Source: Spizellomyces punctatus DAOM BR117 (Eukaryota). Taken from it: 64,000 nucleotides of DNA. The notes beneath the pieces are model-generated. The model saw only the letters and a list, made by a program, of their open reading frames with translations, had not been told where the DNA came from and did no database searches. The stretch lies in NCBI GenBank assembly GCA_000182565.2, contig KQ257456.1, one strand, 5' to 3'. The position numbers and the translations under genes were made by a program. Positions 9 through 15,254 of this stretch are shown in pieces. How positions within the stretch are numbered: position 1 is the stretch's first letter; each line of letters opens with the position of its first letter.

Positions 9-97
9 TACAATTGGGGTTAGTAGTGCGGAGCCGGTGGGTATTGGCACTAGCACCCGCACCAGGGATTGAACCGCGCGACAACCGGTTCGGAAAC
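9..97 (-). ncRNA. Fanzor omegaRNA: scaffold 97->24 plus guide derived from the flank (23->~9, CUAACCCCAAUUGUA...)
   Basis: Minus strand reads GTTTCCGAACCGGTTGTCGCGCGGTTCAATCCCTGGTGCGGGTGCTAGTGCCAATACCCACCGGCTCCGCACTA, starting ~20 nt after the Fanzor stop and overlapping the right TIR. Hairpin GAACCG/CGGTTC and stem GGTGCGG/CCGCACT. Matches the SpuFz scaffold as I remember it. Guide length is assumed. Confidence 0.88.
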
Positions 98-117
98 CTT
101 AATCTAACTAGTCTACG

Positions 118-2597
118 CTACGCTACCACTGGAACACCCCTCCTGAACACCTCTGGTCTACCGTGTCCATCCAACATTGATTGCATGATTGCCAGCATGT
201 TGCAGGTTGACAGTGTATCTCGATTCCAGTAGCGCATTGTCCAGGCTTGCTGCAAACAGTTAGGGTTGGTACAACCCAGCAATCCATGGACTTTTTCAAC
301 CTTGCCTTCTTGTCATCACCAAGGTCTTGAATGAGGTCATGTTTTGAAGTCCTTTTCAAGGAAGTGTAACGACGAGGACGTCTTCGAGAGATCGCGAGTA
401 AGCCCAAATCGGACGCGGGAAGCACGAATCGCGTGACCAACTCCACCGATTGGGTTACCGCGACCGAAAAAACCGGTTCGGAGAATGGCAATTGGCGCAT
501 TAGATTTCAGCGTGCCTCGTACAACCTGTGGAGGCCCGAGCCAGTGCGGAAAAGGAAGAGATCGGTACCGCCACCAATAAATCAGTTGCGGTGCAGCGAC
601 ACCCATTAGTTTAGTTTAGTTTAACAGTTTATCCAAGAATCTTGTATAAAAAGGATGTATTCAATAAAATAAGTCGGGGGCAGAAGCCGTAGCGACACAA
701 AATCCCCATAACTCGCTTCTCAACTCCAATCTTAGGTTAACAGGAACCTAACAGAGCGCTTCAACGGCCTGATCACCCGTACCGAAGCCTCTAAATCCTG
801 CTCGGTTCACAACTAACCGACTCTCCTTGCCTCTCGCCCCCAAGTCGCTACCGACGCCCAAAGAAAGGATTTGGAGACTACGATTCCTAGTACGGACACC
901 CACACAACCTGCTAGGAGACCCAAGTTGTCTTTACTGTAGTCTACCAACAAAAAATCCGTTACATGGTGGAGAAGCGCGACGAACCGCCTTCCCCTCTCA
1001 AATTCAGCTGAAAACCTTATTCGGTCGTACCGATCCTGCTCCGCTTAAAGAGGGTGCGCCAACCTTTTGTCTTTGATGAGGTCTGAAATCTTGCAGTTCG
1101 ACTGGCATCGCTCCAATCACCCATCATGACAGTAAAGTTTTCACCATACTTGTTGCACATGTTGGATATGAGGTCTGATTCACTCTTCTGATGGTTTATG
1201 AATGTGTGCCATTTCCACCACGTGTGGGCAGGATGTGAGTAGAACTCCTTGCGACAATCCCAATCAGCATGGCGAACAAGAAGGTAGCGAGTAAAATCCA
1301 TGAGGTTCATTGTTTTGTGGCTAGGAATTCATGATTCTATGAGGTCAATATCCCCCTTCTTCATCTGCTGCCTTTGCCTTTGCTGTCAATGGCTACCTGT
1401 CTCCATGGCTCACTGGTTTGCAGTGTAATGAAATGTTGTACCAATGCTGTCTTGGCAGTAGAGAATGTCACGCTTGTTTGGGTCGATAGCAACAACATTC
1501 TCTGCTCAACAAGCAGGTAAGTTGTTCTCCACATATACTGCCTTCACCTCAGCTTCTAGGGTCTTTGCTGACTTTCTCGCTCCATGCTTTCTGTACTTGT
1601 CAGCATTGGGGTGTTTCAAATACACAGAAACCGAGGTACTGTCCATTGTGATCGAGCCTTCAAACTGCATATGGCAGCGAGACCGAAAAGCCTTGGTATG
1701 TAGATTGCAGACGCGCATCCACAGATCATCCTTCTCTAATGCTTCTGCTTCTCGCTGCATGATGCAAAGAATATGAGAGTAGAGAATGATGGTGTCGATC
1801 CGCACATGGCTTTGGATGAGGGAGTGGCGAAGTGGGATTGCACTGAACCGTCGAAATCCATGCTTTTCATATAGGCTTGACAACCAACAGTAGGCAGGGA
1901 AGAAGGCGAGAGGGTCTACAGCAACTGAATATGTGAGCGGCTGGTCGGAAAGGGGAATGAAGGACCACATCTCTTCTAGAAGCTCACTCTCTTCAGCAGT
2001 CAAGTCATCGAGTGACTCGGGCACAGTATCAAAAAGGAAAATTGACTTCAAGTAGTGAAGATGAGCAAAGAAAGCCTTTTGCACATCACTTTTAGGTGGC
2101 AGTTGCTGCTTCTGTCCCTTCACATCGAGCCGCAGATTGATATATCAAAGGAGCATCTGCATAAAATGCTCTTGAACATTGACTTTCAGGTTCATCATCA
2201 TACTTGCTGTCAGGTAATTAATTGACTGCTGCTCACCTCATAGATTTGGATGAACAAAGCTGACAATGCAGCAGTACTGACAAATGTATGGCAACAAGCA
2301 TCCGCATAGCACCTTCTTTGCATCTGTTCTTGGTTGCCAAGCCTCCCCCTTGTTGAGAAGATAGAGAATTGCTTCGATTGTATCTTGATCTACCATGGGA
2401 ACGGATGGCGCAGAGAGGATGTAGAATTTGAGAGCATGGGAAGCATGGTCAGCAAGTTGATGGATAATGGCAATGTAATCAAGAAGACGCTGTCGGTAGG
2501 TCTCATTAGGCAGGAAAGCTTTTGCAAAGGAAGTCTTGTTGCAAGTATGTAAGCAGGTAGGTAGCTTTTCAAGCTTTTGCTTTTTCTTTGGTGGCAT
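118..2597 (-). pseudogene. Fanzor1 (eukaryotic TnpB/Cas12-like RNA-guided nuclease) pseudogene
   Basis: ORF pieces 2238-2597, 1506-2123 and 1017-1310 are in one frame and read like SpuFz1 as I recall it (MPPKKKQKL..HTCNKTSFAKAFLPNETYRQRLLDY; RuvC-I VVAIDPNKRDILY; GDWSDA..KGWRTLFK). The C-terminus resumes at 364 (FLEKDFKT*PHSRPW**QEGKVEKVHGLLGCTNPNC..RYWNRDTLSTCNML..GVPVVA*, stop 118-120). Nine in-frame TGA stops and an LTR insertion/deletion at 365-1030. Confidence 0.95.
365..1030 (+). mobile_element. Truncated LTR retrotransposon: 600-bp 5' LTR (365-964), PBS (965-~980) and a short internal stub
   Basis: Termini TGTAACG (365-371) and CGTTACA (958-964) are perfect 7-bp inverted repeats with TG...CA ends. 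They are followed directly by TGGTGGAGAAGCGCG, complementary to a tRNA 3' end ...CUUCUCCACCA. TATAAAAA at 645-652 and AATAAA at 663-668. Confidence 0.88.
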
Positions 2598-3106
2598 GAT
2601 GATATCTGTGGAAAAAGATGAAAGCCTGGGAAAATGGGCGACGACTTATATAGGATTTTTTGAATCAAACCATAGTTCATGAGTCTAAATCGAGTAAAAT
2701 TATGATTAAATTGGTTGGAATCTATGTACTAGTGCCAAAGTCCACCGGCTCCACACTATGAATGTGCTAGTTTCTACAGCATATGCCTTCATGCTAGACT
2801 ATTGATGTTTTGATTTCGTTCGATTGACCGACAATGTGTTGTGCTTCTTTCATCGTCTTTTTCGTAAGCTCTGTTTTCTTATCTTACGACCCAGTGCGGA
2901 TGGATGAAAGAATAGGCTGGCACATAGCTTCTCGGAACTGGCTCTGTTGACCGTAAATGGGGCGCGCGGCCACGAGCGGTGATGGCTGTGCAGAGCCAAA
3001 TGCTTAGCCACGCAGGAGATAGCCAAGCCCTTTTCAATGTTCACATAATATACCCAACTGGAGCTCCAGATAATTCTCCATAGCGACATTTTGAGACAAG
3101 ACAATA

Positions 3107-10691: not shown

Positions 10692-12329
10692 TCTAGGCAA
10701 GTCATAAAGATTGTGAAATGACACTTAAATCACCGGGCAACTGGCCTGAACTATTTATAATATGGCAATGTCTGTTATCTTTGGAATTAGGACACCATAT
10801 GAAGGTCTCCATTAGTATGTGGTATAGCCACAATAGATGTATTCAAACTTTTGGCTTCCGACATGCAAATCGCAAAGAACGCCGATTCACTTGTCCTTCA
10901 TTTTGACCTAACCATATCGGCACTCAAACATAGGCCTCAAATCAAAGGAGCGGAGGGCTTCTGGAAGGGACTCCCTCGGTTGCCAGGTGCAAACAACAAA
11001 CTAAACTCAGTGGCTCCATGCTATGTTGCCCACATAGTAACTTTGACAGAATAAATTCCAAATTCTGTCGGTAATTAAAGTTCTGGCTCCATGTACTAAT
11101 AAGATGTTCACATTCGACTTTGGTAACTTTGGGCCACACTTTCAATATGGCTGAAGGATCATGCAAATGAATAGCCCGCAAACATTAGCGCGTGAAAATA
11201 ACAAATATGGTCGGGCAGTCTGGTTATTGTTTGACATCCGGAACTGATGAACTGATTGAAACTTCAAGAAGAAGTGGATGCAATCAGAACATATTGACTG
11301 AGATATTTGGCCTCATTCGAGTCCTCAAATGATGATGCGGAAATAAAACTTCTGTAAGTTCTGTAAGTAGGCCAGCCGTAACATAGTCCCTCAACAGCTA
11401 ATCTACTAGTCAATATGAACTAGCAATTTCCATCAACTTCTTGCGAATAAAGAATTATCCCATAAATAACCATAAATAAAGGAAACTACGGTCCCACCAA
11501 TTTTGAATGATGACATGCCATTCTCCGGTTTTTTTCCGGCATAAAAAACGAGGGTAACTTCAATGAATATAACTTCCAGGTATTACTTGGACTACAACCG
11601 AACCTCCGGCTCTTCCGTAGTTGTTTCACTCTTCACAAACTATAAACGCCTCCTTGGTCGGAAGTAGCTGCGTTGTCATTGTTTTCTGAAAATAGTTCGA
11701 AATCTGACAACAGGATGAAAGACCCTGATATGTGAAAATCTGGATATTCCGTGGTTCAGTCCTCAACACATCGCTTTTCCGCCGTAAGTTTCTTTCATGC
11801 GCGATAGGCGCCAATTACCAGCGGAAACCCTGCATTCGCATAATACGTTTGAGATAAGAATGTCCGTAAACTATTCCCAAGGTAAAATCTCGCAAAGTTT
11901 CTCCCCTGACTTTATTCACAGTTGCACTTGGATTGGTCGCAATAAAATATGAAAACCAGCGAGGAAATGGATCGTACGTGGCGCACAGTAAAAAAATGCA
12001 TACAACAAATCTAGAAATTCCATTGCATCCAACGAGGTAGGTGCAGCATTACGGAGCAACAGACCCATTCTGGTACAGCATCTTGCTCATCTCCAACAGA
12101 TGGAACGCGTCAAAATCCAGGACAGCTCGACAGAAAGGACGTTGCAGGCCATAATACAGATTTGTGTAGCGCAGACAACCACAAAACTGAGGACTTCTTA
12201 TCGAAATGTCCTTTTTAAACGGATACAATATTTCAGATGTCAATCCTGAAATCGATATGTGTATATAATTTGTAGATAGCAATATTATCCCGTTAACCAT
12301 TACCGCAGTCCTATGCTGTCATATTCATA

Positions 12330-13083
12330 GTGTGAACGTGGTTGAAAATGGCACTAGGACCCATTATTATCCGGATTAGTCCGGTTAATCGTATCGCATA
12401 ATCAGAACCCCCATCTATCGCTCAAAGCGGTGAGGCATGCATGCTAATGTTCTCCAAACTGCGGTGTGGCACATGCTAATGTAACGTTTTTTCTTTCAGC
12501 TGGACCCCATTTTGCCACATTCGAGGTCTATAAAGGGGGGCCTTCTGTCTCTTCCCTCTCTCCCCTTCCTCACCAGTTCCTCGACTCTCAAAGCATCTGC
12601 CAAACGCTCAAGCAACTCTCAAGTCCATCATGAGAGTACTGCTCTGGTGCTGAGGACCTCGCCCTCCCGACTACCAGCAACTGGAACCAGCGCAGCTTCG
12701 GAACCAACAAAGCTGTTATTATGCTGCCACATTAGTTGAGCTTGGTTGGTATGTACTGATGGCATCATCTCTTTTCATGTTATTCTGTCACTGACATGCA
12801 GTTTTTTTCTCTAGTCTCCAAGCCTTGTCCCTGAAAATCCCCCAGCTTGTGACGCTGCCCAGTCGATTCGCTCCTGGATGCAAGAGTCTGGCTTCAATGC
12901 CATCAAGAGTTCTGGATCAAGGCCTAGTAGGGACCGCGTGTGGTGGTGGGCAGTTATCCGGTTAGAACAACCGTTACGTATTGCGTGCATAATTGCCTAG
13001 TAGTTAGTTAGCTTTTCCGAACCGGTTGTCGCCGGTTTATTCCCTGGTGTAGTAGCTAGTGCCATTTTCTGTCACCTCTACAC
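12330..13083 (+). mobile_element. Non-autonomous Fanzor-family 'ghost' element (no intact Fanzor ORF)
   Basis: Left flank CATA (12326-12329), then GTGTGAACGTGGTTGAAAATGGCACTAG. The right end reverse-complements to GTGTAGAGGTGACAGAAAATGGCACTAG and is followed by TA (13084-13085). An omegaRNA scaffold overlaps the right end. Confidence 0.88.
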
Positions 13084-13100
13084 TAAGAATAAGTCACTCA
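13012..13100 (+). ncRNA. Diverged Fanzor omegaRNA: scaffold ~13012-13085 plus guide AGAAUAAGUCACUCA...
   Basis: TTTTCCGAACCGGTTGTCGCCGGTTTATTCCCTGGTGTAGTAGCTAGTGCCATTTTCTGTCACCTCTACACTA is colinear with the scaffold at 97->24. Hairpin AACCGG/CCGGTT and stem GGTGTAG/CTACACT. Guide length is assumed. Confidence 0.82.
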
Positions 13101-13141
13101 TACATCATGAAGCTATCGCCAAGCTGTTCACCGCGGCATTC

Positions 13142-15254
13142 TCATATCTCATCCACTCCTAACGCCACAGATGGTTTACCAAAGTTTGCGTCAAATCCAA
13201 CAGCGCCTTCCGCAAAGAAAACGGCGCCGTCAGCTCGCACATCCTTACGCTTTCCAAAGTCAAAGGCAAAAGCGCTAGAGCCTGTTTCATCTTCATTCAT
13301 TCCCAAAAGACCGTAGCGCCGCCAACGCGGTGAAAGCCTTAACCACCTTGTCGAGCTACCAGCTCGTAAACCGGCTCCATGTAGTATGCTCTCAAAGTTT
13401 TTCAGATTGCGCTGGGAGAGGACTATATAAAATGGGTCCATGTCTGATTTTGTCATATCCAATCGACCTGTTTGATCAAGCGGCCGACGCGCATCAAGGA
13501 TGTCTTCGATTGTTTGCAGGATTCGAGATGATGAAGCGTCTGGGCTACTCATGAACGAGTCGCACAAATCATATGTCGACGTAGAGGTGGTTGTTGTGCT
13601 TGTTGACGTTGGGTCTGTTTCGTCCGGTGCGGGGGTAATGGTGATGGTCTGTGCGATATCGGATAGCGCGGAAAAGCGACGGTCAAGAATGCCTTGTGGT
13701 TGATCAGGTGTGGCTGCATGACTGCAGGTTGTGTAATCTGGCCAAACAAAATCTGATAATTGGACATGTAAGTGGGTCACAATTGCGATGCCAATTTTGA
13801 TGAATGAGTACTTACAAATGGTAGCTTTGAACTTGGTGTACGGATTTTCCTTTTCCTCCTTGGATAGCATAGTTTCTTCTGACGTTCCAGTCCTTGCGTG
13901 TGCAGACTGACAATGCTGGTGGTATTGCCATTGGTGACAAAAATCCGTCTGCGTTTCCTTGCCAGTGCCCTCGTTATGTGTGCTCGGTTCCGGTTCTGGA
14001 GAGAGTACAGTTGTTACCGGTATCGGAAGAGGTCTGTCCTCTGGAGCGTGCGCGTTGATGGATGGAAGCTAGAGAAACAAAGTGAGACGAGTGAGACGGG
14101 AACTTGGTCCAATATGCAATGAGAGCAAAGAAACAGACACTTACTATTGCGAATAAGTACGTAGGTACCGTCTTGCACTCATTTTTCTGCTTTCCTCGCA
14201 AGGCTCTTTTTGCCAGAAACTTGTCCAACACATCCAAACCAGCCCTACTTCCAATCATCAGTCCTGCATACCGATAAGGATCCTCCTCGGTTCTGTCCGC
14301 TATCTGCTCAACATTCCCGCTGACAAATTTTGCAAACCAATCACGTACATCGGCAATCTCATTTTGCTCTGACTGATCGTTTTCTCCCGCATCCCCAGCT
14401 CGATCTGGTCCCATGCCACCCATCCGACCATGTCGACCCCACAACCTACGCGAATGTTTCCATGTCGTATGACCGCAGTCCCACCATTCGCGCAGATCAG
14501 AATCTTTATTTGTCAAGCCTCTCACACAATGGCCATCATGAATCCAAGTACCCTCTACTTGGGAACCAAAGGACGGTACAACCTCCGCCACCTCTCCATG
14601 GCGAATCCCATGAAACTGAGAAATAGTATCTGCACCGCCAAAGAAAAACCCATCATCGACGGATGCTCTCTGCTCTTCCTCTTCACTTATCGTATTTTTG
14701 CGAACTATGTCCTCAAGATTGCCCAGAGTTGGGTCAGTAGTGTCAAAGCCAGCAGAGGTGCGTAGTTGGATATCACGCCAAGTCGTTCGACCAACTCTTC
14801 GTAGACATTGCTGGAGGGATTCTAGTCCAGAAGATCCATCAACGATCAAGGTGTGCGTGGTGGGGTGCGACGATGTTCGTGTGTGGATCGTAACAAGGGG
14901 GCCGCCGTGGAGGGTCGGGTGAAGCATTACACGCATCGTCCAAGACTCTGGTTCTGTCGGTACACTCCCTCTTCCATAGTGTAATGGGAAATCAACCCAG
15001 CCCACATTGGGTCCAACTTCCATGCCGAGATCAAACACCCTACCATGTCCATCCCCTTTACTGAACCCTTTTTGAACACCCCACTCAGGTTTTTGAAGTA
15101 CCCACTCCACTGCATTTCTCCAAGCCCTACAAACGCCTTTGCAGGATAAAATTAAATCATCTAGACAAGGTGGATTCGTGTGTAGTCGGGTAAAGAGGAT
15201 GAGAAGGATGTCTGTTGGAAGAGCTGTAGGGCCATTGCGACCTGATGATGACAT
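13142..15254 (-). CDS. F-box-like protein (two exons)
   Basis: N-terminal LPTDILLILFTRL..LSCKGVCRAWR. An intron at 14144-14069 (GTAAGT...CTCTAG) joins ORFs 13974-15254 and 13142-13870 in frame (1110 + 927 nt). Confidence 0.7.

Follow-up and report, generated by a model that had tools for sequence, protein, structure and literature searches.

Do matching substitutions on the two arms of an RNA helix indicate that selection has kept the helix, or can mutation write the same letters on both sides without it? The question is raised by a window of 64,000 nucleotides (the whole stretch of DNA analysed here) from contig KQ257456.1 of the Spizellomyces punctatus DAOM BR117 assembly GCA_000182565.2, in which an omegaRNA scaffold is found beside a Fanzor gene (copy 1, canonical) and again in an element that has no such gene (copy 2, ghost). 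A sequence-only reading had noticed that paired changes preserve both stems of the second scaffold, and had taken them as a sign of selection on RNA structure. We confirm the observation of the paired changes, while its interpretation is only partly supported. The parts of the two scaffolds that enter the comparison are the following.

13012-13085, plus strand: ghost omegaRNA scaffold (copy 2), 74 nt
13019-13025 with 13032-13038, plus strand: stem 1 of copy 2
13039-13044, plus strand: linker of copy 2
13045-13052 with 13078-13085, plus strand: base of stem 2 of copy 2
13050-13051, plus strand: U40 and A41, the 5' side of the swapped pairs (canonical C40 and G41), from the alignment
13079-13080, plus strand: U69 and A70, the 3' side of the swapped pairs (canonical C69 and G70), within the right inverted repeat, from the alignment
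24-98, minus strand: canonical omegaRNA scaffold (copy 1), the comparison copy, 75 nt; its guide runs downwards from 23

Self-BLAST finds the motif block in exactly two copies in the window, and the 19-mer UUUCCGAACCGGUUGUCGC has two exact occurrences against none expected from 100 shuffles. Copy 1 starts 20 nt past the Fanzor stop codon, and the sequence upstream of copy 2 has no similarity to Fanzor coding DNA; the likeness between the copies ends at ...CACUA in both. Searched with Rfam at the gathering threshold, the whole window gave no match. The locus of the second scaffold had been recognised correctly by the sequence-only reading, with a start (13013) that falls one base short of 13012. 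Its quoted letters are present as well: the stem GGUGCGG/CCGCACU becomes GGUGUAG/CUACACU, the 5' hairpin AACCGG-UUGUCG-CCGGUU lies at 13020-13037, and the three blocks that it described as unchanged, UUUCCGAACCGGUUGUCGC, UCCCUGGUG and GCUAGUGCCA, are identical in both copies. The alignment of the two copies has 56 identical columns out of 75 and one gap of 1 nt. From copy 1 to copy 2, C40-G70 turns into U-A and G41-C69 into A-U, i.e. in window letters the U at 13050 pairs with the A at 13080 and the A at 13051 with the U at 13079. As had been claimed, both stems keep their pairing: all 15 pairs of stem 1 and the stem 2 base are paired in both copies, with two-sided changes at 2 of them and a one-sided change, G8-C28 to G8.U28, at another.

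What kind of element carries copy 2? Its anatomy is given below, together with its immediate surroundings.

12326-12329, plus strand: CATA at the left junction, made up of the flanking CA and the element's first TA; it equals the SpuFz1 TAM 5'-CATA given in the available text of PMC10432273
12328-12357, plus strand: left 30-nt terminal inverted repeat, an inverted match to 13056-13085; the multi-copy cover begins at 12328
12529-12535, plus strand: TATA-like box TATAAAG, read in the sequence; the motif recurs in other ghost copies
12749-12814, plus strand: 66-nt GT..AG intron (GTATGT ... CTGAC ... TAG), with an alternative 5' site at 12745 and contigs skipping it
13056-13085, plus strand: right 30-nt terminal inverted repeat, overlapping scaffold positions 46-75
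13086-13099, plus strand: presumed 14-nt guide AGAAUAAGUCACUC from flanking DNA; ghost similarity stops at 13085, and the guide length is taken from the available text of PMC10432273
13142-13870, opposite strand: ORF just downstream of the ghost element

In the part of their text available for this work, Saito et al. 2023 in Nature (PMC10432273) describe 42 Fanzor loci and 134 ghost Spu-1 loci in S. punctatus, and characterise the latter by the lack of an ORF, by 30-nt inverted repeats with CA before the left one, and by a 75-nt omegaRNA region at the right end. The element at 12328-13085 measures 758 bp between its ends and is complete, with both repeats present; its 41-nt arms are 78% complementary. 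No ORF of at least 80 aa lies wholly between these ends, and one 85-aa plus-strand ORF (13059-13316) starts in the last 27 bases and runs into the flank. The marks of a ghost that can be read from the DNA or the published record are all found here: 30-nt repeats with the omegaRNA over the right one, no Fanzor ORF, a CA/CATA left junction, a scaffold with a 3-nt bulge and a published listing. Contigs of public runs pile up over 12328-13085 and not over the flanks, and beyond 13085 the sequence no longer resembles copy 1 or any other ghost copy. We also considered copy 2 as a solo right-end fragment; the presence of a left repeat with its CATA junction excludes this.

Neither the feature nor the locus is new: the ghost is catalogued, and published work already covers how ghost and canonical scaffolds compare, which bases touch the protein, which region can be trimmed and that ghost scaffolds are active. 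The right end of the window's ghost together with 85 nt of unique flank is a verbatim record in the accessible portion of Supplementary Data 2 of PMC10432273, and the locus of copy 1 is present in that of Supplementary Data 1. Compared by eye with the scaffolds printed there, copy 2 differs from Ghost1 at two bases, the 13024/13033 pair, and copy 1 matches the 75-nt SpuFz1 scaffold at 73 of 75 bases. A second paper, Nat Commun 2026 (PMC13434818), collates in its available text 126 unique ghost scaffolds (gst1-gst126) and assays representatives with an engineered SpuFz1. In a word search, compensatory and covariation were absent from the main texts of these two papers.

Are the two helices real? 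Copy 2 folds into stem 1 and stem 2 with -21.3 kcal/mol (z -3.71; 0 of 200 shuffles as stable), and the canonical scaffold folds into the same two stems with -29.5 kcal/mol (z -2.06; 7 of 200 shuffles as stable). The published numbering, which we anchored by taking U5-C6-C7 as the UCC of UUUCC, fits both copies, with stem 1 formed by 8-14 and 21/23-28, the linker by 29-34 and stem 2 by 35-75. In its computed fold, stem 2 of the ghost carries a CUA bulge of 3 nt, whereas the canonical one has an 8-nt loop; the same replacement of the 8-nt loop by a 3-nt bulge is reported for ghost RNAs in the portion of PMC10432273 at hand. Both helices are real, as the cryo-EM description matches the computed folds. 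According to that description, as far as the available text goes, the protein contacts U5-C7, U16-G20, G22, C32, C34, U35, G37, A72 and A75, and C40-G70 is flexible, without contact to SpuFz1 and trimmable without loss of activity in human cells (PMC10432273). All protein-contacting bases are identical in the ghost except G22, which is absent; G22 is absent also in 21 of the 32 Fanzor-linked copies, and its loss is not specific to ghosts. The protein-free part of stem 2 opens with the two swapped pairs.

A mapping of the changes on the SpuFz RNP structure had been proposed: the unchanged blocks match the contacts published in the text available, and the swap lies in the non-contacting C40-G70. 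The sequence-only reading had further seen in the changes a map of dispensable scaffold parts. The variable part does coincide with the protein-free, trimmable C40-G70, and such a map is already in print in the accessible text of PMC10432273. Its statement that the segment before the last stem had drifted freely has to be given up, because this segment is conserved as the ghost family's own version (near-identical among the ghost copies inspected), forms another helix and lies within the 30-nt terminal inverted repeat. In the fold it is a re-registered helix, in which GUG pairs with a new CAC.

The overlap with the repeat raises the possibility that the constraint acts on DNA, i.e. that scaffold positions 46-75, being the right terminal inverted repeat, change together with their partners as a reflection of transposon-end recognition. 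Indeed, GCUAGUGCCA is conserved because it is part of the inverted repeat and is mirrored, like the whole of the last 30 nt, at the left ends of both elements, which is a DNA-level and not an RNA constraint. In the same direction point the ghost-specific TCACC of the right end, mirrored by GGTGA in the ghost left ends within the partial supplement text, and the seven positions at which ghost and Fanzor repeats differ according to the available part of PMC10432273. However, the repeat includes neither the 5' partners 40 and 41 nor any base of stem 1, and these match their partners all the same. Moreover, at the equivalent of 69-70 the left ends read TG (both elements of the window and the ghost left ends seen in the partial supplement) or CG (3 canonical ones), and never TA, so that the repeat does not dictate the state of the right end. 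We therefore consider end recognition a quite unlikely origin of the paired change.

How much, then, does the swap prove by itself? In the alignment of two rows, slid controls pair 31-59% of the cells and the covariation score is reached by 133 of 500 shuffles; two sequences carry no statistical power. Starting from the copy 1 scaffold, we let sequences evolve neutrally in simulation until 18 substitutions had accumulated, the number by which the two copies differ, in 20000 runs per setting, with uniform rates or with CpG sites mutating 10 or 30 times faster. At least 2 compensated pairs arose in 5% of the uniform runs, in 34% of the runs with CpG x10 and in 38% of those with CpG x30. The compensated pairs are this frequent in the CpG-biased runs because CG is self-complementary and, in a helix, CG faces CG. 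Of the 16 bases that make up proximal stem 2, only positions 40, 41, 69 and 70 belong to CpGs. With at least 2 compensated pairs in 34-38% of the CpG-biased neutral runs, little is proved by the swap alone, and the caveat that both changes are CG to TA and might stem from methylation-driven mutation is a substantial one. The proposed selection on RNA structure finds better support in the helices as a whole, which are real and whose 15 pairs were all kept in 0.4% (uniform), 2.0% (CpG x10) and 2.2% (CpG x30) of the neutral runs.

The mutational background can be read directly from the Fanzor copy at the other end of this comparison.

118-2597, minus strand: SpuFz1-type Fanzor1 pseudogene with six in-frame TGA codons, all at Arg positions
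about 304-1031, minus strand: 728-bp insertion in the Fanzor pseudogene, replacing 41 codons
2729-2758, minus strand: left inverted repeat of the Fanzor copy with CA before it; it has TG where the right end has CG

The read-through protein matches SpuFz1 of PDB 8gkh (E 1e-277, and 4e-32 for a C-terminal piece), and the element is therefore a Spizellomyces punctatus Spu-1; Pfam gave no family for the read-through protein, and its 61-aa C-terminal piece gives a sub-threshold match only. Counted by eye, 24 of the 46 aligned Arg residues are changed (8 to H, 5 to Q, 6 to stop, 3 to C, 1 to W and 1 to K), and 23 of these 24 changes are single CpG transitions. A variant genetic code was considered for the in-frame TGAs and is excluded: each of the six stands opposite an Arg of SpuFz1, and elsewhere Arg codons have turned into C, H, Q or W. 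The dead copy has a CpG observed/expected ratio of 0.45, with TG at 1.35, CA at 1.51 and TA at 0.52; in the rest of the window the CpG ratio is 0.88-0.91. RIP-like mutation is excluded by this TA ratio of 0.52 together with the excess of TG and CA in the decayed copy. The loss of CpG sites is uneven along the pseudogene, with 2 of 17 lost 3' of the insertion and 23 of 46 in the 5' part (p 0.008). The scaffold of copy 1 retains 8 of 8 CpGs, though its coding part and left repeat have decayed. A hint of shielding may be seen here, none of 8 scaffold CpGs being lost while 23 of 46 Arg codons were hit.

Could the paired change be nothing but a mutational artefact, with methylation-driven C>T on both strands at two facing, self-complementary CpGs and a pairing that follows automatically, with no selection involved? 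This would agree with the position of the swap at the sole CpGs of proximal stem 2, with the 34-38% of CpG-biased runs that compensate, and with the CpG-decayed Fanzor copy, with its ratio of 0.45 and its CpG transitions at 23 of 46 Arg codons. It would also agree with the 5mC reported as confined to transposons in Spizellomyces in the available text of PMC12695648. However, the CpG decay in the window halts at TG/CA, as seen from the TA ratio of 0.52 in the decayed copy, so that two more transitions of the ordinary kind, at sites that pair, are required to take both arms from CG to TA; the exact TA/TA state was reached in 0.06-0.5% of the neutral runs, and the survival of all 15 pairs in about 2% of the runs or fewer. 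Against an artefact stand, too, the 8 of 8 scaffold CpGs that copy 1 keeps despite its decayed left repeat and coding region.

Is the swap a property of this pair of copies or of the families to which they belong? We counted pair states by eye in partial text views of the supplements of PMC10432273, covering 139 places in the ghost file and 35 in the Fanzor file. At the base of stem 2, 60 ghost copies are readable on both arms in these views, and 58 of them are UA/UA, with one C40xA70 and one UG/UG, whose two wobbles make it a possible intermediate. The canonical right ends are CG/CG in 32 of 32 copies, with no mixed or decayed state and 0 of 64 CpGs lost. Read from these sequences, the swap is one old historical event that divides the two families, and not recurrent covariation. 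The uniform canonical state, which includes dead copies, speaks against an artefact of CpG decay.

Within the ghost family, variation is found at pair 13-23 (13024-13033 in the window). Among 70 copies readable in the partial views, 49 have G-C, 15 A-U, 3 AxC, 2 G.U and 1 UxC. The public runs show the same two changes: in X1 and again in X4, 5 contigs have 13024 G>A and 5 have 13033 C>T, with equal depth in X1; among the run-contig rows listed they are the only scaffold variants at 5% or more, and no variant of at least 5% falls at 13038-13085. The association between the two positions (15 doubles against 4.4 expected; Fisher p 1e-10) is inflated by shared descent. Other double-sided changes seen in the same partial supplement are U-A at pair 12-24 (2 copies), A-U>G-C at pair 9-27 (1 copy) and U-A by transversions at pair 42-68 (2 copies), and pair 8-28 is found as G-C, G.U and A-U. 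Altogether, two Watson-Crick types occur at 7 of the 15 pairs when the family is counted by eye in these views; each is probably one event, four are sited at CpGs, and two (9-27 and 42-68) are not of the CpG type. Copy counts are not independent, since each swapped pair is a single historical event.

The family also holds departures from pairing. In the partial views, G42xA68, which breaks a pair, is common to 5 ghost copies, and several copies contain single mismatches. Among the 32 canonical copies, by comparison, all 11 stem-1 departures are C>U giving G.U, and none is a mismatch. Shared and private stem variants did not contrast significantly (8 compatible and 3 incompatible against 6 and 5, p 0.66). 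Most within-family scaffold variants in these views fall on CpGs (G8>A, G13>A, C23>U), as a mutational artefact would have it. Against it, compensation is also seen at pairs that are not of the CpG type, at 42-68 through transversions and at 9-27, where A-U became G-C. Taking both sides together, we regard an artefact without selection as unlikely. From the aligned copies, purifying selection on both helices in multiplying lineages is the likely process, with CpG mutability deciding where the changes fall.

Is the copy in the window still in use? Its intact helices might reflect the youth of the insertion rather than current use, and the element would then be an inert relic. Its left repeat is more diverged than the left repeats of other ghost copies, a gene on the opposite strand lies just downstream (the ORF at 13142-13870), and the contigs of X1 and X4 that bridge into the unique flank are of a kind that cannot reveal an RNA end. 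On the other hand, nothing in the scaffold is private to this copy when it is set against the commonest ghost forms, and there is no damage to either end of the element, to the CATA junction, to the TATA-like box or to the splice signals. We hold it improbable that the element is such a relic.

Several features of the public runs concern transcription. None of the 24 listed public runs contains half of the sampled words, and X13 amounts to one contig. In X4, contigs skip the intron with joints 12743>12814 and 12747>12814, and loose ends link exon 1 to TCTCCAAGCC in X4, X12 and X13; the contigs of X1 continue through the ghost intron. X4 contigs with 100- to 1000-fold higher word depth start just downstream of the TATA-like box, a weak indication given that depth is stated per contig. 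The ghost elements have the appearance of transcription units that are spliced. A word search of the main texts of the two papers treating Fanzor ghost loci did not find intron, spliced or TATA, and a TATA-like box, a spliced intron or Pol III-stopping U-runs were not found in these two papers.

Three side observations belong to the same subject. The splice signals recur in the other ghost copies seen in the supplement, the U-runs of the scaffold would stop Pol III, and an 88-nt contig of X12, the only hint here of an expressed guide RNA, consists of the scaffold and the 13-nt guide of a sister ghost locus. Such observations bear on how a eukaryote may express guide RNAs.

One may go further and speculate that ghost Spu-1 elements are self-contained guide-RNA genes, in which transcription from a TATA-type promoter would give a short exon that codes for nothing, then a GT..AG intron that is spliced out and lastly, at the transcript's 3' end, the omegaRNA. 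Pairing and the protein-free distal half of stem 2 would then be kept for making and stabilising the RNA in the chytrid and not for nuclease activity, the omegaRNA module would be shielded from CpG decay, and ghost and dead-gene loci would form a maintained guide library. We put this forward tentatively, as a possibility towards which we do not lean at present.

The reading that we prefer, and hold with good confidence, is that a complete, non-autonomous ghost Spu-1 element has its omegaRNA gene at 13012-13085, on its right end, and that the swap is a fixed difference between families, sited at CpGs by mutation, with pairing retained by purifying selection on the helices. The paired swap would have arisen before the ghost family expanded. 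Mutation would have set the changed sites, these being the sole CpGs of the helix in a genome with 5mC reported as confined to transposons, and the path probably led via G.U intermediates. Full pairing, and the survival of all 15 pairs at about 25% divergence, would be due to purifying selection in those lineages that kept multiplying.

What follows for function rests on published work, cited from the text available. In PMC10432273, the guide length is 14-15 nt, and four ghost scaffolds combined with SpuFz1 gave indels comparable to those of an extended canonical scaffold. Following this literature, the ghost RNA, a scaffold of 74-75 nt with a flank-derived guide of 14-15 nt, would be loaded in trans onto SpuFz1 supplied by intact Fanzor copies, and the loaded RNA would direct the cutting of DNA that matches the guide and is flanked by CATA. 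For other ghost loci, the expression of an RNA of about 88-90 nt that SpuFz1 binds and uses for cleavage is published. For the ghost locus of the window, we infer activity of the same kind. The distal helix is not entirely neutral either, given that the full 75-nt scaffold performed 1.26- to 1.94-fold better than a trimmed 52-nt one in the available text of PMC13434818.

In summary, paired CG>TA changes in a methylated transposon are expected in about a third of neutral histories, which calls for caution with covariation claims in any CpG-methylated repeat. The tally by eye over the family suggests that both helices are nevertheless under selection.

How does this element compare with known systems? 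The bacterial TnpB omegaRNA (reRNA) of the IS200/IS605 elements likewise spans the right end, takes its guide from the flank and has the TAM at the left junction, and protein-less derivatives occur there as well, as non-autonomous copies that carry only the RNA. Unlike TnpB systems, Spu-1 has 30-nt inverted repeats, and its ghosts appear to have a eukaryotic promoter and an intron; in addition, the pseudoknot found in the TnpB RNA is missing from the SpuFz1 omegaRNA according to the available part of PMC10432273. With the canonical SpuFz1 omegaRNA (PDB 8GKH) the ghost shares stem 1, the 6-nt linker, stem 2 and the 3' guide. It differs from it in the linker sequence (UUUAUU against UUCAAU), in a remodelled distal stem 2 and in being unlinked to a Fanzor gene. 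The gst1-gst126 collection of PMC13434818, as far as its accessible text shows, draws on the same pool of natural variants at the same published loci, and ranks editing efficiency, not covariation. Finally, the ghost of the window and the published ghost Spu-1 are the same thing, with 758 bp between the ends here and about 550 nt plus repeats given in the portion of PMC10432273 consulted.

The ghost element, which occupies window 12328-13085 on the plus strand and carries no Fanzor ORF, looks like a transcription unit, with a TATA-like box, an intron and an omegaRNA located at its 3' end. The features of this unit, together with that of the Fanzor gene considered below, are as follows:

window 12529-12535: TATA-like box inside the ghost element
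window 12749-12814: GT..AG intron of 66 nt inside the ghost element
window 304-1031, minus strand: insertion of 728 bp within the Fanzor gene

Among the public sequencing runs whose contigs we matched to the window, X4, X12 and X13 contain exon-exon joints or loose ends at the ghost intron, and contigs from X1 read through it. The main texts of the two papers discussing ghost loci make no mention of such a transcription-unit character.

The complementarity of the ghost inverted repeat extends 11 nt into each flank (12317-12327 and 13086-13096), giving 41-nt arms that are 78% complementary. The empty insertion site would be a near-palindrome centred on CATA, which may reflect a target preference or chance.

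The dead Fanzor copy (window 24-2758, minus strand) has decayed at its CpGs. All six of its TGA stops lie at Arg codons, CpG transitions affect 23 of the 46 Arg codons, and the CpG o/e is 0.45; its left repeat carries TG at a site that is CG in three other left ends. Despite this decay of the rest of the copy, its omegaRNA scaffold kept every CpG (8/8), which could stem from selection, from a local lack of methylation or from gene conversion. In the stretch of the gene that separates RuvC-II from the zinc finger, the 728-bp insertion takes the place of 41 codons; it looks young or unmethylated because its CpG o/e is 1.17. It contains a hairpin, CCGAACCGG followed by a U-run, that is similar to stem 1 of the omegaRNA. 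Among the published records, that of the dead Fanzor copy is terminated by a run of N precisely at window position 1, and another has the same right end and flank but its sequence goes on. This pair hints at either a gap in the assembly or a duplication of the locus.

Elsewhere in the genome, the PMC10432273 supplement lists mixed scaffolds (places 17 and 107 of supplementary file 7, and part 22 of file 6). A canonical-type stem 1 that includes G22 occurs in one ghost copy, and one Fanzor-linked copy combines a ghost linker with a canonical stem 2. At pairs 40-70 and 41-69, the base of stem 2, one ghost copy carries UG/UG (two wobbles), a possible intermediate of the swap at these pairs. The same supplement (file 7, places 84-89 and 93-102) includes a further ghost type, with a distinct interior and a different, much longer right-end region ending in ...CCACCUGCACACUA, as well as a second interior type that bears ordinary ghost scaffolds.

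An 88-nt contig from X12 consists of the scaffold (window 13011-13085 region) and the 13-nt guide of a different ghost locus. RNA ends are not provable from contigs; its length nevertheless agrees with the published 88-90-nt omegaRNA.
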